A DNA stretch of 40,555 nt, taken from contig JALAGF010006287.1 of assembly GCA_030167865.1 (NCBI GenBank), positions 124,001 through 164,555 of the forward strand, in the 5' to 3' direction. Each line of letters opens with the position of its first letter. Positions within the stretch are counted from its first letter, which is position 1. The translations under genes were made by a program, and so were the position numbers. The notes below the pieces were generated by a model. It was given only the letters and a program-made list of their open reading frames with translations, ran no database searches and was not told where the DNA came from. Shown here piece by piece: positions 1 through 35,500 of this stretch. The stretch comes from Craspedostauros australis (lineage: Eukaryota).

Positions 1-24
1 GTCGTCGTCGTCGTCGTCGTCGTC
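1..24. repeat. (GTC)8 microsatellite encoding poly-Asp in the pol linker; truncated by the window start
   Basis: gtcgtcgtcgtcgtcgtcgtcgtc read directly; GAC codons in the pol frame. Confidence 0.95.
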
Positions 25-1803
25 CGATTCTGGTTCGGAGTCGGCTTCGTCGTCTGTGACCTGCGGTGTGATTTGGGGCACCCTCGGAGGTGTGCGCGCC
101 GGCGTCGTGGAGGTGACGCGTTTGTTGTTGGTGCGGCTGCTTGCGGTGGTGAGCACCCTCGGAGGTGGCTCGGTGTGCACCCTCGGAAGTGGCGCTGCGG
201 GTGTCTCGGGGAGCGCCTGCTGGAAGATGTCGCTGAGCTGCTGGAGTGCTCCGAGCTGCTCGTCGCCGATCGACTGGAGTGGTGCGCACGGCTTGGTGAG
301 TGCTGTGGCGAGGTCACCTGCTGCTTTGATGGCCATCTCTGCGTTGGTCGGCGTGGGCATGGCGCACTTGCTTGGCATCAGTTCGATGGTGTCGGTGATT
401 CGGACCTTCCTTGTCTTGTTGCAGTACACCTTGTAGCACCGGTAGTGTTCGAGTGCTGGTGCTACGTACCATCCGGCGGATCCGTGTGGTGCCCATGTGG
501 CTCGTTTGCTGGGCTTGTCATGGATGACTGCCTTTGTCCCTGGTGGTGCCATTGGCGTTGCATTGAAGTCGAAGTTGCCGTGGAGGGCATGATGTGCCGA
601 GATGTGCGGGTTGACTCGCGACGGTCGCATCAGGTTGAGTGTGATGTCGCATTGGGGGAGGAGTTGACACCACAGATGGAGTGGAAATGCCTCGTCGGCC
701 GTGGCTAGTCCTGCGATGAAGTGGTCTTTCCAAGTGGAGATGGCTCTCTCTGCTGCGTTGCGTCGGTGAATGCCTGGCGGCACAAGCTGGTATTGGATAC
801 CTTTGGATTCGATGAGGTGCTTGAGTTCTTTCGGCGCCTCGTTGTCGAGTCGGTGAAATCGCGGTGTCATTCCGCTTCGAAGGAGAACCGTCAAAAGTTC
901 GTCACACGCTCGCGTGAGCTCCGTTGCGTGCCGACTGCGCATCGGTCGCGAAAGAATTGCGTTGGAGTCGTGATCGTACAACACCATGATGTACTGGTAT
1001 CCGCGGCTTGACGTCACAGGGAAGCGCCCAGTTTGATCGGTGAAGATTTTACCCGTTGGCCGATAAACGTCCATGAAGATTTCGCGTTGTTCCGTGGGAT
1101 TCTTGGTGGATTGGGTGACGTGGTTACAGTGCTTGCGCGTGGACTGCGTGTTTTGGTACTGTTGTCGGAGGTGCCCAGCGGCGGTAGCGGTGGAAGGTGG
1201 AAGGAATTTTCGCACCAATTGTTCGGTCAGTCCGGGCCACGACGAAAAGAATCCTTTCTTGATGGCTGCTGTGAACGTGGATACCGCGGGGCTGAAGCAG
1301 CACTGGTGGTAATATTTGGCCAGTTCCATCTTGGTTGACGTGTGATGGACGTGATTGGCCATTTTTGGCGATGTGGGCTTCGGCGGTTGGATGTCGATGC
1401 GATACATGCCGTCAACTTGATGCCGACAACCGGTGTGAATCGTGTTTCCGTTTTTTCGAATTCTCACGGATTCTTGGTCGAAGTCAACCGTCATGCCGTG
1501 GTCACACAGTTGCCCCACAGACACAAGCGCCGCGCTGGAAAGTTGTGGAAAAACTCGTGCGGTGCACGCGTGCTGCGGTACATTGGCAATGCTGACCGTG
1601 GCTCGGTGGGAAGATTGGATGTTGGATCCGTCGGGCAACGACACCGACAACGGGTTATCGTCGGGTGTTTGGCCAGTGCAAGGATCTTCAGGTCGCAGGA
1701 AATGACTAGTGCAACCAGAGTCAACTATGGCGAGGGCAGGAGCACAGGATGGTGAAGTAGTAACAGAGAGTGCTACTTGCTTACTGTGGCCCTGCCGTGC
1801 TTG
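1..1803 (-). CDS. pol: Retrotransposon pol, partial (aspartic protease + DDE integrase + linker), 601 codons open to the window edge, in frame with gag
   Basis: No stop codon from 1803 to 1 in the gag frame. Protease Asp at 1722-1720 (DSG); integrase D at 1038-1036, D at 846-844, E at 750-748. Downstream motifs FPLHLWCQLLPQ, GNFDFNATPMAPPG, WAPHG..GWYVAPALEHYRCY. Absent from the ORF track, presumably because it has no stop inside the window. Confidence 0.95.
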
Positions 1804-1806
1804 TCA
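1735..1806 (-). promoter_or_regulatory. Putative gag-pol stop-codon readthrough signal: UGA-CAA followed by a 3' stem-loop
   Basis: Minus strand reads TGA CAAGCAC GGCAGGGCCACAG...CTGTGCTCCTGCC. Arms 1796-1784 and 1747-1735 pair at 12 of 13 positions including one G.U; inner stem AGTAGCA/TGTTACT closes a CTCTC loop. Confidence 0.7.
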
Positions 1807-2967
1807 TGCGTTTGCCGGGGCGCCTTCGGTGGATCCTCCCATCGTGTTGCTGCGAGTGGCCTCCTTCTTGTGCCCTGGCGCTGGGTTCATGCACGTCGCG
1901 CTGGTGTGCGTGATGCCCACCTTGTACCCGTGTGTCCAGCAGTAGGAGTCGTGCTTGTGCTTGCGTCCTCCCTTCTTGCCTCCAGTGCCGCTGCTCGTGG
2001 CCGCATTGGCTTGCAGCTGGGACACCATTGCCGTGATCTCAGACAATTGCTTGACGAGGTTGGCGTTGCTCTCGGTGAGTTGTGCCACGGTGCTGCGATC
2101 CGCGGCTGTGGCGGATGCGAGGTTGGCGAGCGCGTCTGCGGTTTCCGTGGCGGTGATCGCCGCATTGGCTCCTTGGAAGTTGGCGCCCGCAGCCGTGGCT
2201 TGTGATTCGCGGAGGTCTTGGTGGGCTTCAGCGAAGTCCTTCTTGAAGCGAGTCCATGTCTTGTCGGCGGCACTGAGAGCGCGGAAAGAACGGCATGCTT
2301 CGGGGAACGCTTGTGTTCGGAACACCAGGTTGTACGCCGTGGTGACGAGCTGGTGATCTGCGTACGGCGCTTTGGCAGCAGCCGCAAGATCGCGCGCAGA
2401 CTCGATTTGGGCGACGAGCACTTCGAACGGCGCCGTCGGATCGTATGGTGTCTTCATGGCCTTGTCGTTTTCGTCAAGGTCTTGCGGTGTGATCTTGCCG
2501 TACGTGGAGTACAGGTGGGTCAGCAGCTCGAGTGTCGTGACGTTGGCGTAGCCGACGATGTTGTGGCGGAGAGTTCGCACGTACTGGTCTTCAATGGCGC
2601 CAAGAAGCTGTTGCTTGAGGGCATTGTCGACCGCGCGGTACTCTCTCCAAAGGCGCTCCTGTTCCTTGTGGATGCTGGTGGCGGCGCTGATCTGGGCTGC
2701 AGTGGCTGCGTTCGGGATGTTCGGGTGTGGTCCTGGGTTGACCGGCACGACGAATGCTGTCGCCGAATGTTCTTGGTACACCTCTCGGGAGACGGTGAGG
2801 ACCAGGCATCCGAGCTGACCGTTTCCGAGGGGGCAGTGCACCGAGGCCGCATTGGCGTTGAGGACTACATTGAGTTCTGCGATGGACTCGTATGTGGGTA
2901 CCCCGACGATGGGTTCGACGATTGCCTGCGGAAAGGTGGCGAGGATCTTCTCGTGGCTGTTGGCCAT
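1804..2967 (-). CDS. gag: Retrotransposon Gag protein (387 aa)
   Basis: ORF starts 68 nt after the LTR. Motifs LNANAASV..LG.G.LG.L.L, P.NPG..P, LKQQLL.AIE, W..FK..F and a C-terminal YCWTHG...H.S..C.....GH knuckle typical of diatom copia Gag; pol follows directly. Confidence 0.93.
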   Translation of the reverse strand: MANSHEKILATFPQAIVEPIVGVPTYESIAELNVVLNANAASVHCPLGNGQLGCLVLTVSREVYQEHSATAFVVPVNPGPHPNIPNAATAAQISAATSIHKEQERLWREYRAVDNALKQQLLGAIEDQYVRTLRHNIVGYANVTTLELLTHLYSTYGKITPQDLDENDKAMKTPYDPTAPFEVLVAQIESARDLAAAAKAPYADHQLVTTAYNLVFRTQAFPEACRSFRALSAADKTWTRFKKDFAEAHQDLRESQATAAGANFQGANAAITATETADALANLASATAADRSTVAQLTESNANLVKQLSEITAMVSQLQANAATSSGTGGKKGGRKHKHDSYCWTHGYKVGITHTSATCMNPAPGHKKEATRSNTMGGSTEGAPANA

Positions 2968-3021
2968 GGTGATGATTTTTGGTGATGCTGGTCTTGGTGA
3001 CCGAGATTTTCAAACGTTGGC

Positions 3022-3035
3022 TATTAGCGAACAAC
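3022..3035 (-). promoter_or_regulatory. Primer-binding-site position, non-tRNA type (GTTGTTCGCTAATA), complementary to LTR segment 3067-3080
   Basis: Abuts the LTR 3' end (...TTGACA|GTTGTTCG). Lacks the TGG start of a tRNA 3'-end PBS. Plus-strand 3022-3035 tattagcgaacaac is the exact reverse complement of 3067-3080 gttgttcgctaata. Confidence 0.7.
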
Positions 3036-3233
3036 TGTCAATAAGACGAGTAGTGTGTGAATCAATGTTGTTCGCTAATATTATGAGATATTACATTGTT
3101 GAGCTGAGGAGTTGCGGTCTTGGCTCCTGCTAGTGTCTTGATCTGCTCTGGGAGGAAAGTGGGCGCGAGGTGCGCACTTTGCGTACGGTGGTCAGTCGGG
3201 TCACGTGCGGGACTGGAATCAATATCATCGACA
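3036..3233 (-). repeat. 5' LTR (198 bp) of the copia element
   Basis: Minus strand begins TGTCGATGA and ends TTATTGACA: TG...CA ends with an imperfect terminal inverted repeat (7 of 9 match), located just upstream of gag. The second LTR is outside the window, so the boundaries are inferred. Confidence 0.8.
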
Positions 3234-3283
3234 TCATATCCGCAGACAGATAGAAGAAGGCCGCACAAGTACTCAATGCCATC

Positions 3284-4003
3284 ATGGAACATGTTGAGCA
3301 AGAAAGAAGCATCCTCATCATCGGCGCGAGCGGGCGCTTGGGAAGAGCCGTGATCCTGGCAATTTCACATTGCCCCAACAAGCCGCAAATACATGCATTC
3401 TGCCGCGACGTAGGACTTTTCCAATCCGAAGCAGACGTTTCATCGGCATGCACCAGCGTGCTGGGCGGTGACGGGAGGTCATCAACAGACCTGGACAATG
3501 CGCTCCGAGAGTCCGGTGCTAATCTGGTGATCGTCGCCATTGGCAACGGCAAGGACCGATCGAACGCCAACATACGCCATGCCAACGCTGAAGCATTGTC
3601 ACAGGTGCTCATCGCGAACGAGGAGTTTGGCCATGTGCGCGTGTGCGTGATCTCATGTGCCGGTGCCGGGTCAAGCAGCAGCATCCGCATGGGGATGGGA
3701 GTTGGATCAGTTCTGCGCAGGCGGCACCGAGACCTGCTGGAGGATCACACCAGGCAGGAGCGAACCTTCCTGCTGCACATCAAGCACAGGGTAGGCTTCA
3801 TACGCCCCACGATATTCCTCAAAGACCGAACGCCGACTCATCAGCTCCAGACGTTCGACGACGACGGTCACCCGCAGAGCCTGACGACTTTCCGGTCTGA
3901 CCTGGCCGACTGGATCGCAGAGGCGGTCTGCAGCTCAGACGATCCCTTCCTCTTCCAAGGCCGCTCCATCAACATCACGTGCGTCCGTCGAATACGGCTG
4001 TGA
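3284..4003 (+). CDS. NAD(P)-binding Rossmann-fold protein (atypical SDR; flavin reductase/BLVRB-like), 239 aa
   Basis: N-terminal ILIIGASGRLG nucleotide-binding motif, HAFCRD, VISCAGAGSS, DH..QE, IRPT, and C-terminal RSDLADWI pattern. Confidence 0.85.
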   Translation: MEHVEQERSILIIGASGRLGRAVILAISHCPNKPQIHAFCRDVGLFQSEADVSSACTSVLGGDGRSSTDLDNALRESGANLVIVAIGNGKDRSNANIRHANAEALSQVLIANEEFGHVRVCVISCAGAGSSSSIRMGMGVGSVLRRRHRDLLEDHTRQERTFLLHIKHRVGFIRPTIFLKDRTPTHQLQTFDDDGHPQSLTTFRSDLADWIAEAVCSSDDPFLFQGRSINITCVRRIRL

Positions 4004-4366
4004 TCGTGCGCGGACATACATGCATGCAGGCACTACAATCCCGAAGCTCCCAACGGGCCCAAGTCGGATTTGCATCCATGGGTACCCTACTTCGAGCCAT
4101 GCATCCCACACATACCCCTAATCCATCCGTCCATCCGTCAATCTCTCCATTCATTTTCAACCGAGGGGCCCGCATCAGTTCAATCAACGTCTCCCGTAGA
4201 GGTAGATGCACGACGATAATACAACACAAGACACGCCACGACCGCAAGTGATGCAATGGAAGCATTGGTCTCCGCACAAGAATGCAACTCGAACTCAAGA
4301 TTGCGCGAGATCCGTCGCACTAGTTGTCCACTCTCTCTAGAGTATTGTCCTCTGCTCTCTGCTGCT

Positions 4367-4927
4367 CTACGAATGTGCTCCATTTTGTCGCTGCTGTCGA
4401 TTGATCCGTCTCTGTGCACGGTATTCCTCCCAGACACATTGCTCGAAGACCTCCGAACGCCCAGTATCAATCTCTCCAGGTTCCAACGGCACTACCCTTG
4501 TCCTTTGTGGTTGATCGCGGCCGGCACTGTTATTTCCATGCGCTGCTGAGTCTGGCTCATGCAGAGACGAAGATGGAGCATCGTACACCACGTCAAAGCA
4601 TGCGGATGACACACACTGATGAATACAATTCATCGCTTCTTCTGCGATCTGCCCAGAGCACGTCATCCGTTCGCACTCCTGCTGCAGCCTGCGGATGTGC
4701 TCCTCTTTGCCTTTGGGAGGCTTGTTGTGGCCCTTCCCGTACAGATTCCTACGCCGTTGCTCTTTTCGTTGCCCTTGCTGTTTCTTTTGCTGTTGTTGCT
4801 GTTGGTTCTGCTCCGCCACCACGAACTTGGGCAGCAGGAGGAGGATGACCAGCACGAAGAGGTTTTTTACGAAGACAAGCAGATACTTGTTAGTTGAAGG
4901 TGGGCCGTTTCGATTCCCTTTGATCAT
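4367..4927 (-). CDS. Secreted Cys-rich protein, DUF4787-like (186 aa)
   Basis: Hydrophobic signal-like stretch LLVFVKNLFVLVILLLLPKFVVA; Cys pattern C...C......NCIHQCVSSACF...Y, then PLEPGEID..R...F..C, recalled as characteristic of DUF4787. Confidence 0.75.
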   Translation of the reverse strand: MIKGNRNGPPSTNKYLLVFVKNLFVLVILLLLPKFVVAEQNQQQQQQKKQQGQRKEQRRRNLYGKGHNKPPKGKEEHIRRLQQECERMTCSGQIAEEAMNCIHQCVSSACFDVVYDAPSSSLHEPDSAAHGNNSAGRDQPQRTRVVPLEPGEIDTGRSEVFEQCVWEEYRAQRRINRQQRQNGAHS

Positions 4928-5993
4928 GGTGCCAGTCGGGGGATTTACGACACCGTGGGTATCTGACTTGATGGGATCTTGGAGATGATGAGTTGGTGTA
5001 TTTGGATGGCTAAACGACCGAATGACTGCGGCGTTGTTGATGGGCGATGACGCTTGTCGTTTGGATGGTGCGGGCGAGGAGACCTACGAGCTGCACTTGT
5101 GCCAGCGGTGTCGTTTGTAGCAACTTGTGCCTCGTGCCTTGTGCCCAGGCCATGGTCGTCGCTGTCGCTGTTGTTGCTGTTGCTGTTGTTGCTCTTCCCT
5201 TTGCTTCGTTTCGCGTTCCTGCCAGTTCTTGTGTGTGACGACTCTTGGGAGAGAAAGATGACTTGTACCATGCGTCGACCAATGAGATCAGTTCATTTGA
5301 GTGATTTTGAGAACCCAGGACTAATTTCCCAATACAACGTCTGTCCATTGCCCCTATTCATAAGTTTCCACAACCTGGCCAAGACCACAAGTCTGCACTT
5401 TCCAGAACGCTCCATACATATGTACATATGCACATACATATTGTGTAATACAACTTGTCTGGCTGTGCTTCAAGACTGCGACTGCAGGAATCAAGCGACA
5501 GCATAGCTTGTGGATACACTTGAGAGGTTAGGAGTTGATAGGAGTGATATCTCTCTTAATGACAATCATTGTCAACATGACATTGACGGAGACGACGACA
5601 CTGGTGTGGAAATACCAATACATCTGTACGAGCTACAGTAGTATCTTCAGCAGAGTCTATGCAGTGCCTTGCATCAATGGGATGGACAACATATTCCGCC
5701 AGACAACATGTCAGAGTGCGGGTACACTTGAAAGCTGAAGTGGATCGGAATGCTCGACCAATACGCGTAGTTGTTCAGCTCAAAGGATCAAACGCAGCCA
5801 GCGATCGCAGCCTGGTGAATGATGAATGTGCCAAATGGGCACTACTCTCTGGAGTACGAGTATGCTATATTTTATTGTACACAGATGAAAATTGGGATGG
5901 GCAGATGGGGGCAAAAGCACTGGCTGCATTGGGATTGGCATACCCACGATGGTGTGGCGTAGAACGTGGTTCACTCAGAAAGAAGATCCCAAT

Positions 5994-7711
5994 TCATACC
6001 CGACGTTGTCTTTTGGAGGCACGGGTTTTACACAGCTCCTCATCTGAAGTTGGGTGCGTCAGAATGCCGACTGCTCGCATCGGATCAGCGTGCGGGATGC
6101 TCGCCACAGACCCTTCCACACCGATCGCGCTTGCATGCGAAGATTCGCGAGGTTGCGACGAAGTTGATGCTTCAGCCATCGAAATGGAGACCATCGGGAT
6201 CATGGCATTACATCGTCGCTTCTTTGGTGTTGGAGCAGTGAAAGCTTTCACAGCTTCCTTCAGCGTCTTGTCAGACTTGAGCTGATGAAGCACAGACATG
6301 TTGGCCTGCTCGAAGAGCTCGCTCAGGGCTTCGTCTGAGGCTGGGGTGTTGAGAACACGGAGGAAGCAATTGAGGGGTGTTTGCAGAGAGCCAGAAAGAA
6401 GGAAATGCAATGCATGGAGCGGATGAGTATCAGCAGGCTGGTTGGCAGGTTGGTTGATTGATTGAACGAATCGAATCGCACTTGAGGTATCATACTCGTA
6501 TTGGCGCTATCGTACTGAAGCAAAGCCAATGGAAATGAAATGATCATGAAACTCCACAGCCATTCCCAAACATCAGCTTGCCAAATTAGACAGAGATCAT
6601 CATCAAGTATCAGAACTCACCACCTTGCTCAAGACCCTTGTGCACCTCCTCCATGCTACTCGCAACGGCGGCATTCTTCATCATCAGCACATCGATGCTG
6701 TTGTCAAGCTGCTCCGATTCGATTTGGCGTCTCAGTTTCTTCGACTTGGTGCTCGAGCTGTACTTATCACCAAGCAGATCACGAATGCTGCAGGAATGCA
6801 AGGTCAAGCGATGTTTTAGATGTTGGGCGGAACGCACGGTAGCCGAATAAGAGCAACGCGTACCATGTGCACATAGTGGCGCAGCAATGACGTGATTCAA
6901 TGTCACGGAGTCGCGATTGCCGCCCAATCAATTGCAGCGTTGAAGAAAAAGCACAAAATGAAGGTGAAGTTGGGTCAGTTTCAAGTGCATACTGAGACAT
7001 GCTGACCATCTGACAATGCGGGCATGCATGCATGCATGACAATCGCAATCGAGGTTGCATTCACTGTCACCGCGAATATTCGTATTGTCGACGGAACATC
7101 GCTCCAATGGAGACCGACCGAATCATCTGCTCGTCTCCTGGCACCGGTCGAGCATCCCTCAAGATAGATCCTCAACCTCTGCGAATATTCGAACGCTGAA
7201 CGCGACAGTCGCAGACGCCGTCGTTCAATATTGCAACACCGAACCAGTGGGCGACGCAACTTGGCATCGCTTCACCTCCGACGTACCATTGTCCGATCTT
7301 CTCTCGTGCCATGGTGTCATTCACGACAAGCCAACCTGCTCCGTTCTCCAACTTGCGAATGAAACCACCGTTCGGGCTGTTGAAACGGATTTCCTCGATG
7401 ATATTGGTGACGATGCGAGACTTGTCGGCTTTGGATTTGGCGTTCTTGTACTCCGGCACGCAATCTGAGACCAGCTTTCTGAAGTAGACGTTGCCAGGAT
7501 GGTTCTTGACGTTCTTGCCTCTTCCGCAGATGACATCCCGCTCCGTTGGAACGAGGTCATTTGGCAGGATGTCGCTACATTTCGGTCTGGCCATAGCGCC
7601 AAGGGTGAGGTTCGGGAAGCGTGGCGACTGGGCAAGGCTGCTGGCCACGATTCTATCGGCGACGTGCTGGCTTCTGTTGCCATCCGCTTCTTGGTCGATG
7701 CTATTGTTCAT
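5994..7711 (-). CDS. DUF6824-like domain protein, 3 exons (7711-7287, 6787-6621, 6340-5994), about 312 aa; alternative upstream ATG at 7765
   Basis: Motifs DVICGRGK..NHPGN..FR, GGFIRK....W......AREKIGQ|CIRD....YSSSTKSK. GT-AG junctions give an open 939-nt frame. Exon structure is mirrored by the paralogue at 20811. Confidence 0.85.
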
Positions 7712-12971: not shown

Positions 12972-14417
12972 TCATACTATCGTTCGTGGGGATGCTGCTG
13001 GGCTGGAGCGCGGACGCCTAGTGCCGTCAGACGAAGCGTAACCTGATGGCGCAAACGACGGTGATGCTGATGGATATGATGCATGTAGATGTTTGTTGGG
13101 GCTCGAGTAGACGCCATGCGTTTCCATTCGGTTCCCGTAGCAATGGTCCTGGCCAAGCTCTTGCTCCCTGCACGGATACGAATGATCGGAGGCAACGAGG
13201 AGCTCCCATAATCGTTGCCCAGTCGCCATGACTAGTTGTTGCCGTTTCTCCTGCTGCTGCTGCTGCTGTTGTTGTTGGTGGTGATCTGCTGATGACGCAT
13301 TCGCAGCTCCGGCTGCATCCCAACCTAACGCATGCTGCAGCATCTGTTGGAAGTAGGCACGCTTCGTGCGGAGCTTGCTCATGGGCGAATGGGATGCGCT
13401 ACGTCCGTGCTTGCTGGGATGATGCCAACGTAGACGGCGGCCTTGATTGATGTTCGTTAGCTGTAAATGATCAAATGCGTTGACCATCGCACAGTACGCG
13501 AGGATAGATGCGCCGATACCGGCAACGTCGTAGTTCGGCAGAGCGAGCTCCAACTGCGTCTCTGCGACGGTGAGGATTGTTGTGCGGTCGTGGTCGCTGA
13601 ACATGAGGGTCGATCCATGTCTGCTGACAGAGGATGGAGATTGTAACGGCGACGACAACAACGGCGACGACGATGATACTGTCACCGTCACCATGCAGTC
13701 CAGACATGGAAGGAGCCATCTCCAGTACGCGTGCGGCGATATGGGGTGCAACTTCCATTGCAATGCAAACAGTATCTTGCACTCCATCTCCTCAACCTGT
13801 CTGAAGGTGAACTTTCCCTTGCTTACCGCTGCAACCTGCTTGCTCGAAAGCCCGACAGGTTCATGGAGCTTGGCTGCTATGTAAAGGCACGCCATAACTG
13901 CAAGCTGAAAGGTGTGCCGGTCGAGTCCGAACTGTAACGGGTCGGCGCTGAGCGTACGATCCAGGTAGGACATCGCTATCCACACACTCTCCAAGCCAAA
14001 CTCGCATGCCTGAGCGATGCCCATGCACCAATGGCACATCTTCGTCCGGCACACCGCATCCGTGACCTTGTGGCCGGCATCACGCTTGGCGTTGTCGATG
14101 ACAGTGAGGTAGTCGGTTGGTGGCTGGTACAGCTTCTCCTCCTGCATCTGCAGAACAAGAAGCGATTCCACGATCGTTGACGGTAGCAATGAGACCGTTG
14201 ATGTGGTAAAAATGTCGGCTGGGTCGTCACGATGCTGATCAAGATGCAGATGGAGCGGAGCGTTGCTGTCCACGGACAGCGGAGGCGAGTCTCTGTTCTG
14301 CGAATCAGGCGAGGTCGGAACCGACGATGTCGATACTGATGCCGACGACGATAGGCATGATGATGATGTGGCCAATGCCAATGTTTGGTGGGGTATCACC
14401 ACTCGAAGCTCTGGCAT
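12972..14417 (-). CDS. Cyclin, resembling diatom-specific cyclins (dsCYC), 481 aa
   Basis: Cyclin box: RTKMCHWC...AMSYLDR...FQLAVMACLYIAAKLHEP...MECKILFALQWKLHP. Ser-rich N-terminus and poly-Q near the C-terminus. Confidence 0.9.
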   Translation of the reverse strand: MPELRVVIPHQTLALATSSSCLSSSASVSTSSVPTSPDSQNRDSPPLSVDSNAPLHLHLDQHRDDPADIFTTSTVSLLPSTIVESLLVLQMQEEKLYQPPTDYLTVIDNAKRDAGHKVTDAVCRTKMCHWCMGIAQACEFGLESVWIAMSYLDRTLSADPLQFGLDRHTFQLAVMACLYIAAKLHEPVGLSSKQVAAVSKGKFTFRQVEEMECKILFALQWKLHPISPHAYWRWLLPCLDCMVTVTVSSSSPLLSSPLQSPSSVSRHGSTLMFSDHDRTTILTVAETQLELALPNYDVAGIGASILAYCAMVNAFDHLQLTNINQGRRLRWHHPSKHGRSASHSPMSKLRTKRAYFQQMLQHALGWDAAGAANASSADHHQQQQQQQQQEKRQQLVMATGQRLWELLVASDHSYPCREQELGQDHCYGNRMETHGVYSSPNKHLHASYPSASPSFAPSGYASSDGTRRPRSSPAASPRTIV

Positions 14418-32551: not shown

Positions 32552-35500
32552 TCAGCTACGAGAACCGAGTAACAACTTCAATGCGGCAGATGTATCTCCT
32601 GCTCTGAGCATGCAATACATGAGCGCTTGCTGTCCTTCCGAAAAGATTGGACGATTGGGTCCAGCGCTTGCGGAAGCCTCTTCTGTTTCTGTTTGTGCGT
32701 TTGCGGACGTTGCCCATTCTTTGGCGGCTTTCGTGTCACCCATGTGAGCCGAAATGACACTGGCCGTCGATCGTAGCATTTGTTGTGCCTTTCCCAGTCG
32801 AATTCTGGAAATTCCATCTCCAACTCCTGCGTCTGCTTGCTTCTGCTGCTGCTGTTGCTTTTGATCTTGTGGGTCCATGTTTGTCCCAGCCAAAGCCGAT
32901 GCCAAGCGGTCGATAGCAGCCTCATCCATTGTGGAACCATCACCCGCCAGGTACTGCATAGCCTTGCCGGGATCACCCAGCATGCAGCAAGCCTCCGCCG
33001 CGTACATTCGTGCTGTGGACACTTGACGTTGGTCTACACCACTCGTGTCCATATTCGTCTCCGTAGTTGTATGGGTGGTGCTATCTAGCACTGCCATCGA
33101 CATCACATGTTCGGCATGTTGTAGAGCCTCGTGGTACTGCTGCAGCTCGAGGTGCACATACGACAGCGACAAATGAGCTGCGATCTTTCCAGCAATATCG
33201 ACATGCTTCGAACGGTATTTCTTCTCATCAACATTTTCCGCATCTGCTAGAGTGGTATTCGAATTTGGCTGTTCACCACGACGAGAGTGCAGTTGCAACG
33301 CCTTCTCCAAAGCAAGCCGCGCACGTGGCAATGGTCGAGATCTGACCCGCTCAATATCACCCGCGGTGCCCAAACGAAGAGAAGCACCGTTCGAGTTGTC
33401 TTCGTCGCCACCATGATTGCTGTCGCCATCGTGATTGCTTCCCATTTTGTTGGCCATGGTGGATTTCAACAGAATGCCGGATCCGGTTCCAACCACGCTC
33501 GCGAATGCAGCTGTGCCGTCCTGCTGCTGCCGTTCTTTCTGCCGATTGCCATGATGGATGCCGATACAAAACTCGCCCAAGCGAAGCCAGCATCGCGGTT
33601 GCTGCGCAAACGTGCTTTGAGAGTACCGCAGGCAGATGGACATGCATTCGTACGCAGATTCAAAGCGTTGGCAACGTGCAGCACAGAGCGCCGAATTGTA
33701 CAGAATGAGCAGGGTTGGATCGGGACGCGCGGTGCCATCGGGTGCGAACGTGGCAAGGCTGCTGCTGCCTGCTTGCGGGTCGTTGGTGCCAGCGCCAGAA
33801 CCATTCTCGATGTGACCGGTCTTCTCGTGGTTGCCATCCCCGCTTTGAGTGGCATGTGCGTCTGTTCCATCTGATACCGTCGATGACATTGACGACCAAG
33901 CCGCCGCATCACGCAATGCCTTGGACAAAGTGTGCAGGGCGAGGAATCGCTTGCCGTGGGTTTGATACACCAACGCCAAGTTGTTGGCATGCAGTGCATC
34001 ATAGTACGAAGAGGATGGAACATCGGCTGCGATTGTGGCTTCGTTGCCATTGACGTCAACAATGCTGGTGTTGCCATGCTCCACCGGCAACGATGCCTGA
34101 GCCTCGGCACATAGAATGAGGGATTTTTTGACATTGCCCTTGAGCTGCTCGACGTTTGCCTTGAGATTGAGCGCCGTTTGCTGCTGTGCCTGTAGGACAC
34201 GCGACAAGTCTGTTGCGTTCGTGCCGTTCCGAGCAGAGCCCGCTGCTGGTCCAGGAATCATGGTGATGGAAGTTTCGGCGTTGACAGTCGTTGCGTTTGG
34301 AACATCCTCCATCGACAAAACGGAGGAGTTCCCACCCAGAGAGAGCGCATCCGGAGCTGATGACGATGTGGCGGACGATGGTCGAAGCTTCTGCTGAAAG
34401 ATCTCCATGGCCTGCTTGAGTTCCTTCCTCGCTTGCCGCACGTTGGATTCCTGGATGCGCGATGGCTTCTGCCGATCTGCAAACTCGACGCGGCTCCTGT
34501 ACAGGCTGACTTGGAATTTGAGCTGGTGCGAGGCTTCATTGGCCGTCGCTAGCTTCCCCAGCCAATCTAGAACAGCCGATGCCGTCAACGTGTTTTCCGA
34601 AGGTCCTCCGTTCTTCGTCGTTGATGATCTGGCGTGAACACCTAGTGGATTTCCAAGAGAGACATGCAACAGATTCTCCAAGTACAGGAAGCCCAACCGT
34701 GATCCCACCGCCACGAGCGCGTTGGGGAAGTCGCCATCAGCCTGCTGCTGTCCACCTTTCTGCTGCTGCGATTGCTGCTGCCGTTGGTTCTTTTGGTCTG
34801 CGTGCGATTGCATGATGGATGTGAGCTGGTCATGGCACAATTGCAAGGATTCCTTGACATGCCCCTCCGTGTGCATCATGAGAGCACGGTTGTAGCTCAG
34901 GATGAACGAATTGCGACGTCGCTTGCGTCCCATGGGACGTGGTTGATAGTCAGCCGGAGGATCGTGGGATGCGGCTTGGCGACCGTCGTTGCTTTTGGCG
35001 TTTCCTTTGCCCTTCCTCTTGCCCTTTGCATGGCCTCCGCCTGTGCCACCAGATGTGTCCATGCCGCTGCTGCCATCATTGATGTCAGAATCAGTGTCAA
35101 CAGCAGCATCCACTCCCACGATGCTCACATTTTCCGAATCCACCCTCGGAGAGTGCTGCGTCTCCCAGCTTCGGAGCCTCCGCTGCAGGTTGGCCACTCT
35201 AGGTCTCTGCTTGCCGCTCCCGGTTGATGACTGCGACGCAATCAAGTGCGTGAGGATGGCTCTGTTGTAGTCAGCGGCAGCATTCGGAGATGCTGAATCC
35301 GGAGTCGATTGGCCATCCACATTTTTGGCTGCCTTGTTGGCTGCCTTGTCTCCGTGCGTGCCGTTTCTGACGCTTCCGCTCTTCTTGCCACTCGCAAACT
35401 TATTGGACGCCTTGCCATTGCTGCTCTTGCTGCCATCGGATCCTCCTTCTCCATTCCCCCGCGTCCCAGCATGCTCGAGCTGCCCCGCATTGAGGCGACT

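Follow-up and report, generated by a model that had tools for sequence, protein, structure and literature searches.

How a retrotransposon makes the enzymes of its pol gene when a stop codon closes the gag gene ahead of it is the question raised by one end of a 40,555-nucleotide stretch of Craspedostauros australis DNA (contig JALAGF010006287.1, positions 124,001 to 164,555; hereafter, the window). The minus strand of this end carries an apparently intact Copia-type long terminal repeat (LTR) retrotransposon of a eukaryotic host, with relatives recorded in diatoms. Its gag and pol share a single reading frame of 989 codons containing eight TGG, one TGA and neither TAA nor TAG: gag ends ...AAC GCA TGA, and the same frame continues CAA GCA CGG CAG GGC... 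for 601 stop-free codons to window position 1, as an initial annotation of the locus had described. The same annotation placed the protease active-site motif, Asp-Ser-Gly (DSG), 28 codons past the stop without an intervening ATG, and the window sequence agrees: the Asp is codon 28 of pol, and the first in-frame ATG is codon 104, 76 codons beyond the motif. Both D28 and G30 are invariant in the alignment of relatives (A5). We propose that programmed readthrough of this UGA, helped by RNA structure just downstream, probably sets the ratio of Gag to Pol, a reading drawn from sequence comparison and folding.

We analyzed where gag ends among protein relatives. A search with the gag protein over a length range of 212-678 amino acids gave 247 relatives, and the best 120 of these 247 are 39-56% identical to it, mostly 380-430 amino acids long, cover most of the query and come from contigs of up to 13.8 kb. 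The C-terminal part of the window gag contains a zinc-knuckle-like motif, YCWTHGY...H....C, followed by a GH..ATR..MGGS motif. The second of these, as GH..AT....GGS, is found in 107 of the best 120 relatives, 105 of which end 3-11 residues past it, compared with 8 in the window; the commonest last residue is Glu (41 of the 120). Against a profile built from 67 gag relatives, the window protein aligns across positions 1-394 of 396. The knuckle itself (1890-1942, residues 342-359) is non-canonical relative to CCHC, reading Y-C-W-T-H-G-Y-x7-H-x4-C; C343, H354 and C359 are invariant across the 67 relatives, and position 346 is His or Cys.

The junction was also used as a query. An exhaustive phmmer search of 1.84 billion representatives with residues 200-600 of the readthrough product gave 6613 matches at E <= 0.001, of which the top 150 were fetched. 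When the 275 fetched proteins were re-scored by local phmmer, 161 were found to end in gag, 94 to start in pol, 19 to span the junction and one to span it partially, proportions that reflect the length limits set for the searches and the higher scores of spanning proteins and are not frequencies. The gag-ending proteins stop within -5 to +3 residues of the position equivalent to the window stop in 147 of 161 cases. A regular expression combining knuckle and motif, which leaves out proteins lacking either pattern, retained 153 proteins, 139 ending fewer than 15 residues past the motif and 14 extending further. Judged from these alignments, the position of the window stop is far from random and lies exactly where the gag open reading frames (ORFs) of its relatives end.

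The relatives with continuous gag and pol are informative about the residue at the junction. In these readthrough-type proteins gag and pol are colinear. We assigned the junction residue only where a close gag-only relative fixes the position and the tail aligns within 0-2 residues; ungapped extrapolation of the stop position is unreliable in spanning proteins that have no such relative. The assigned residues are Trp (P0005, P0130 and P0131), Leu (P0002 and P0004) and Arg (P0003 and P0138), which have codons one base away from UGA, and Ala in P0006, an exception to this single-base-neighbor pattern. Cys was seen at the junction once (P0129, by eye). The sole long fusion found, P0277 (1618 amino acids), reads MGGSTTNKN-W-VHP. 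Past the junction Gln, His or Arg often follows, and nearly all of these proteins have a Gly two or three codons further along. Among the 14 extending proteins selected by the regular expression, nine have a Trp at +3 to +14 past the motif, whereas a Trp frequency of 1.1% would predict 12.5% (binomial, 8e-6). The known natural readers of UGA are Trp, Arg and Cys tRNAs (cited in PMC2194720).

We sought DNA relatives in a collection of bacterial and archaeal genomes. A gag-based scan of these genome contigs gave no relative, and a pol-based scan gave six loci, L001 to L006. The first five (L001, JAYSWT010000059.1; L002, JALZUF010000179.1; L003, JAMASZ010000360.1; L004, JBBRSB010000074.1; L005, JANMZB010000957.1) are most likely mis-binned eukaryotic DNA, in bins labeled Alphaproteobacteria, Gloeobacterales and Sphingobacteriaceae. 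L006 was rejected as a member of the family: its 1350-residue ORF (2374-6423) has an integrase-core match at residues 1222-1347, and integrase in last place indicates a different type of retroelement. The junction is present in L001, L003 and L004 and missing from L002 and L005. All three distant relatives with a junction have TGA at the end of gag, and in two of them, L003 and L004, pol follows in frame. L003 has a full-length gag frame (850-2088, profile positions 5-394) that ends AAA TGA GAG GGA GGG GCG, after which 488 codons of that frame stay open up to the end of the locus; in L004, gag (247-1371) ends AAA TGA TTC AGA GGG ACG, and the same frame is open for 1359 codons and includes the reverse transcriptase (RT) family RVT_2. 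The L001 junction reads AAC TGA CAA GGA GGG GAA. This locus carries a run of 12 C (1609-1621) between stop and protease, where its gag and pol frames diverge, and its gag has a long C-terminal tail (1270-1517) rich in Asn and Gly, for which AAC/AAT/GGT repeats code. Pairwise identity among the window element and these three is 32-40% for gag, 40-47% for pol and, over the 100 nt past the stop in a global alignment, 54-63%. Sister families keep the stop, both as the gag end of most of the sampled protein relatives and as TGA in three very distant DNA relatives.

Folding of the RNA downstream of the window stop recovered the basal stem and the 7-nt spacer claimed in the initial annotation. Two runs of the 5′ arm, GGCAGGG and CACAG, pair with UCCUGCC and CUGUG of the 3′ arm, giving 12 pairs (11 Watson-Crick and one G.U) that flank a C/C mismatch. 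Pair probabilities in this stem are 0.68-1.0 and are high in folding contexts of 82 to 301 nt. The inner stem described earlier, AGTAGCA/TGTTACT, exists as a possible hairpin and turned out to be one of two competitors; the minimum-energy fold favors AAGUAG/CUACUU, with a pair probability of 0.58-0.65. The window hairpin has a z-score of -2.16, with 7 of 200 shuffled sequences equally stable; the post-stop stem is matched in stability by 44-56 of 964 segments of 75 nt taken along the element, and the 80-nt segment past the stop ranks 81 of 963. In an arm-partner test devised after the stem had been seen, an equally good partner for a 13-nt arm beginning 6-9 nt past a codon was found at 7 of 913 codon positions, or at 13 of 913 with spacers of 2-9 nt. 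The folding tools used work without pseudoknot prediction. The exact runs of the stem, 6 and 5 nt long, are too short for a repeat search seeded at 7 nt, which left it unlisted, and Rfam gave no match at E <= 1 in window positions 1-3400, L003 or L004.

An extended hairpin is predicted past the stop in all four elements, its G-rich 5′ arm beginning 3-8 nt after the stop. The L001 hairpin has a z-score of -2.69 (1 of 200 shuffles as stable), that of L004 -4.50 and that of L003 -5.85 (0 of 200 in both). The 80-nt segment past the L003 stop ranks 2 of 876 in stability, and the arm-partner test found equally good positions numbering 3 of 826 in L003 and 66 of 1659 in L004. GAGGG occupies +5 to +9 in L001, L003 and L004, as part of UGA-NNN-RGAGGG, and its counterpart in the window is CAGGG at +10 to +14. 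The codon phase of the window CAGGG differs from that of GAGGG in the relatives, an indication of likeness at the RNA level that goes beyond a conserved Gly codon. The first position of the motif forms a C-G pair in the window and a G-C pair in L003 and L004, a compensatory change, and the partner of its last G is U in the window and C in the other elements. These pairing changes among four sequences are suggestive and fall short of proof. The initial annotation had likened the structure to 3′ structures starting about 8 nt after a stop; this fits the window, with its 7-nt spacer, and does not fit the three relatives, where the stem begins 3-5 nt past the stop.

From the conserved gag end, the TGA in three distant relatives and the recurrent hairpins we infer that readthrough occurs, which residue is inserted and that the hairpin stimulates it, which sustains the initial annotation's reading of structure-stimulated readthrough. 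Gag would be made by normal termination at the UGA, and a minor Gag-Pol fusion would arise when a near-cognate tRNA, most likely that for Trp and otherwise that for Arg or Cys, occasionally decodes it, so that the leaky stop would set the Gag:Pol ratio. The frequency of readthrough would most likely be raised by the extended hairpin, whose G-rich 5′ arm begins 7 nt past the stop; with the UGA occupying the A site, the hairpin would act at the point where the mRNA enters the ribosome. We regard the synthesis of Gag-Pol by UGA readthrough as likely; for the hairpin as a stimulator, the folding and its recurrence lead us to a more guarded judgment in favor.

Several observations weigh against this proposal. 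Taken alone, the window hairpin is marginally unusual. The segment past the L004 stop ranks 694 of 1709 at 80 nt and 120 of 1702 at 100 nt, the poor rank at 80 nt arising because the stem of this element extends over about 98 nt. In L001 a C stands opposite the A of the motif, the covariation as a whole is anecdotal, and RNAalifold, given three junctions aligned by MAFFT, put the L004 arm in the wrong place. In L001, L003 and L004 the stem starts at +3 to +5, nearer the stop than the usual 6-8 nt. The leaky context that the initial annotation had pointed to, UGA-C and a stop followed by CAR, is shared by the window and L001 (UGA CAA) and is not conserved in L003 (UGA GAG) or L004 (UGA UUC). 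In L001 the pol frame is shifted by one base relative to gag, and gag itself is split between two frames near nt 570-603; this locus is either damaged or mis-assembled and counts only for its stop and structure. No protein search returned a relative above ~56% identity, which places same-family copies outside the comparison, and about 250 gag-only relatives are known as proteins alone, from which the pol frame is not readable. The Trp at the junction of readthrough-type relatives could be a TGA called as Trp by a gene caller and not a TGG, which would leave an in-frame TGA either way. Finally, a 300-nt junction of the Candida albicans element Tca2 gave 0.3% readthrough in Saccharomyces cerevisiae, no more than an ordinary stop (PMC2194720).

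The last of these results leads to the alternative that survives best, although we consider it unlikely: the stop would be conserved and bypassed on full-length RNA, with distant cis sequences or trans factors as the stimulator in place of the local hairpin, which would instead serve packaging or dimerization, ribosome pausing for Gag assembly, or RNA processing. Such a stimulator fits the modest z-score of the window hairpin. With a stop in the A site, ribosome geometry would have a stem base 3-5 nt past it melted inside the ribosome, and the stem begins at that distance in three of the four elements. A distant stimulator has been argued for Tca2, whose junction was insufficient in yeast (PMC2194720), and RT binding to eRF1 in murine leukemia virus (MuLV) is a parallel. 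Set against it are the recurrence of a hairpin with a G-rich 5′ arm in four lineages that are 54-63% identical over the post-stop 100 nt, the near-extreme rank of the L003 hairpin among 80-nt segments of its element, and the finding that alphavirus hairpins placed 6-8 nt past a UGA raise readthrough 3- to 14-fold (PMC3159437).

We think it quite improbable that pol is made without passing the stop, by way of a spliced RNA, a subgenomic RNA from an internal promoter, or internal or non-AUG initiation. There are precedents for splicing and for an internal promoter: Drosophila copia balances Gag and Pol by splicing and Tca2 has a weak promoter at the junction (PMC2194720), and splicing has also been reported for Arabidopsis Copia elements (PMC5580714). 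At the level of sequence, 12 in-frame GT...AG combinations span the window stop, so the spliced transcript that the initial annotation held up against readthrough can be drawn; yet the nearest GT lies 88 nt upstream of the stop, within the conserved zinc knuckle, which makes a small intron removing the stop unlikely, and every one of the 12 introns would delete the GH..ATR..MGGS block that readthrough-type relatives keep colinear with the protease. As for initiation, the first in-frame ATG comes too late for the protease motif, and the M, V or L codons at which pol ORFs are predicted to begin in relatives are scattered: about 70 of 94 lie 1-68 residues ahead of D[ST]G (with three outliers at 134, 162 and 407), and about 24 of 94 lie past the motif. 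Across these 94 relatives the pol initiator is not conserved. A splice-donor-like CA/GTAAG occurs at 1780-1785, 19-24 nt past the stop, overlapping the AG end of the 5′ stem arm and the adjoining loop; lying past the stop, it is unable to remove it.

A private nonsense mutation in a dead copy, whose ancestor would have carried gag and pol in a single ORF, an arrangement of many Copia elements, is barely credible. A continuous ORF does exist in a minority of relatives (the 19 spanning proteins and one partial spanner among 275, and P0277), and repeat and profile searches found no second copy of the family in the window. At the family level the idea nevertheless fails, with the gag end shared by 147 of the 161 gag-ending relatives and TGA at the same place in three relatives of 32-47% identity; the other codons of the 989 are intact, and gag matches the family profile from end to end.

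The other genes of the window are ordinary eukaryotic ones, encoding Vps8, a cyclin, NOG1, a cyclophilin-RRM protein and a thioredoxin/ERGIC protein. TGA terminates the stop-to-stop frames with cyclophilin-RRM, cyclin and thioredoxin/ERGIC domains, which suggests that TGA serves as a stop in the host. That UGA is sense here, as Trp in the host code or as selenocysteine, is the least likely alternative of all: Trp is indeed the commonest junction residue in readthrough-type relatives, but TGA ends 13 of the 17 window stop-to-stop frames of at least 250 codons, among them frames with complete-looking eukaryotic domains, all eight Trp codons of the element are TGG with the lone TGA exactly at the gag/pol boundary, and Cys, the usual replacement for selenocysteine, stands at the junction in that single protein, although no search for a SECIS element was made.

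The coding layout of the element is given in Table 1. Pfam found a single sub-threshold match, to SH3_retrovirus, in the 989-residue readthrough product and nothing in gag, and a sequence search of the PDB with pol gave no match. An AlphaFold2 model of pol (mean predicted local distance difference test score 69.8) resembles retroviral integrases, among them the prototype foamy virus intasome (3oym_A, E 5.8e-9), and core-domain integrase chains superpose on it at a root-mean-square deviation of 3.4-3.6 Å. RVT_2 follows the integrase region in long relatives, at 40.2 bits in P0226 and 37.7 bits in the L004 pol (cut-off 31.6). The DSG motif and the integrase fold that comes after it in the window, together with RVT_2 behind it in relatives, give the order protease, integrase, RT of a Ty1/copia-like element, where the position of RT is taken from the relatives and the element's own RT is outside the window. 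Pfam is blind to the gag, protease and integrase of this lineage: there is no rve match, the RVT_2 scores of relatives are near threshold, and the integrase is recognized by its predicted fold alone. The nearest ESM Atlas clusters to gag include 'Gag protein family protein' and a cluster recorded in Bacillariophyta (phylum given for six members).

Table 1 Features of the retrotransposon in the window
Feature	Window positions	Strand	Description
gag ORF	1807..2967	-	387 codons, ATG at 2967 to GCA at 1807
In-frame UGA stop between gag and pol	1804..1806	-	sole stop in 989 codons
pol	1..1803	-	601 codons, cut by the window edge; protease, integrase, acidic tail
Spacer CAAGCAC	1797..1803	-	7 nt; first codon CAA, UGA-C context
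Basal stem, 5′ arm GGCAGGGCCACAG	1784..1796	-	holds CAGGG, counterpart of GAGGG in relatives
Inner hairpin in the loop	1755..1778	-	AAGUAG/CUACUU in the minimum-energy fold; competing AGUAGCA/UGUUACU
Basal stem, 3′ arm CUGUGCUCCUGCC	1735..1747	-	pairs with 1784..1796
Protease active-site D-S-G	1714..1722	-	codons 28-30 past the stop
Integrase core	~379-1056	-	within pol, after the protease

At the edge of the window (1-60) the integrase is followed by an acidic run, ...DDEADSEPESDDDDDDDD, and L001 has a similar LSDDDDDDNDDDEH at the corresponding place (~3200-3260). Searches of the window for DNA repeats and a six-frame profile search for copies found no second copy of the element and no LTR pair; the 3′ end of the element lies beyond the window. 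Upstream of gag, the element stands head to head with a host ORF (3284-4003) for an NAD(P)H-binding protein (PF13460), with 2968-3283 between them. These 316 nt separating the two start codons leave little space in which to fit a leader as well as a 5′ LTR. Two 14-nt sequences there, TATTAGCGAACAAC / GTTGTTCGCTAATA at 3022-3035 and 3067-3080, form a perfect inverted repeat; its halves are spaced 31 nt apart and lie 55-113 nt upstream of the gag ATG in what is presumed to be the 5′ leader or LTR. Elsewhere in the window, imperfect GTT/GCT-rich repeats of a trinucleotide type (direct-repeat family D1; 4754-5208, 13230-13291 and 32834-32883) sit inside ORFs coding for Gln/Asn-rich low-complexity stretches.

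Leaky gag/pol stops are textbook material for some retroviruses. To our knowledge only a few Copia-type elements have one, and in Tca2, the best studied of them, the mechanism of bypass is still unsettled. The literature searched on readthrough in diatom LTR retrotransposons gave no earlier description of the present signal. What is new here is a module of UGA and G-rich hairpin that is family-wide; the kind of recoding signal is already known. The stop is kept across hundreds of sampled relatives, the hairpin recurs among lineages of 32-47% protein identity, and diatoms, the apparent host group, include transformable species, which together make a clean reporter test possible. For annotation, the rule for this lineage would be to join gag and pol as one readthrough product and not to call the locus a pseudogene. 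With the motif, such elements could also be sought in marine metagenomic data, in which their gag, protease and integrase escape Pfam.

A broader interpretation is tentative, and we would sooner doubt it than rely on it: UGA-N3-RGAGGG with a long hairpin closed by a C-rich arm might be an ancient RNA-level recoding signal of a very large Copia-like lineage, spread over diatoms and other marine protists and unrecognized by Pfam. The size of the lineage is judged from the search with the junction, in which 6613 representative clusters scored E <= 0.001. If this interpretation were true, a G-rich arm 3-5 nt past the stop in most lineages would imply an action unlike that of classical signals, whose spacer is 8 nt; a purine-rich tract read in the mRNA channel might, for instance, work together with an upper stem at the entrance. 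Trp in place of the stop would then mark lineages that have switched to a single-ORF strategy.

The element can be compared with several known systems. In-frame stops occur between gag and pol in MuLV and Tca2, and between pol and env in SIRE1 (PMC2194720). Tca2 (pCal) resembles the window element in being of the Copia type, with gag and pol in the same frame, a UGA between them, and a purine-rich stretch and a potential structure next; its Pol is made from full-length RNA (PMC2194720). The structure proposed for Tca2 is a bulged-stem pseudoknot after an 8-nt spacer, whereas ours is an extended hairpin obtained by pseudoknot-free folding (PMC2194720). The host of Tca2 belongs to a different eukaryotic kingdom, and the likeness is one of layout and not of sequence comparison.

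MuLV shares the in-frame gag/pol stop, the purine-rich 3′ sequence and a structure that is needed for its ~5% readthrough (PMC2194720, PMC3159437). It differs in having UAG, an 8-nt spacer, a compact pseudoknot and RT before integrase, whereas the family described here has UGA and a hairpin of 62-94 nt that starts at +3 to +8.

Signals of the alphavirus, furovirus and tobravirus type are like the window in their UGA-C, 7-8-nt spacer, basal stem of ~12 bp and self-folding loop, and in a 3′ arm that lies where the protein is poorly constrained (PMC3159437). Extended hairpins 7-8 nt past a UGA are also predicted in several plant virus genera (PMC3159437). The next codon in these signals is CGG or CUA, whereas in our elements it is CAA, GAG or UUC (PMC3159437). 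They belong to RNA viruses, and ours to retrotransposons in which the stems of the relatives stand nearer the stop. From signals of the tobacco mosaic virus type, stop-CAR-YYA, the window and L001 share the next codon CAA; the second codon of the window is GCA, not YYA, and L003 and L004 are without the CAR context. That viral motif acts with UAG and needs no structure.

Among retrotransposons, Tj1, Tosmo1-3 and Tcry1 of fission yeasts likewise conserve a TGA that divides gag from an in-frame pol; a particular codon is favored ahead of it, the context being GAA TGA CT, and Tj1 reportedly cannot transpose without the stop (PMC10085805). Glu as the commonest last gag residue among the relatives of our element parallels this GAA. 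The Tj1 group is of the Ty3/gypsy type; its signal is a linear context of 8 nt, and the extract of that paper mentions no structure (PMC10085805), whereas in the present family the context varies and the structure recurs. The CoDi elements of Phaeodactylum and Thalassiosira are, like the window element, diatom Copia elements, with the order protease, integrase, RT, RNase H (PMC2806351); the extract of Maumus et al. (2009) describes for them no recoding mechanism, stop identity or RNA structure (PMC2806351). The element probably belongs with CoDi in the same broad group.

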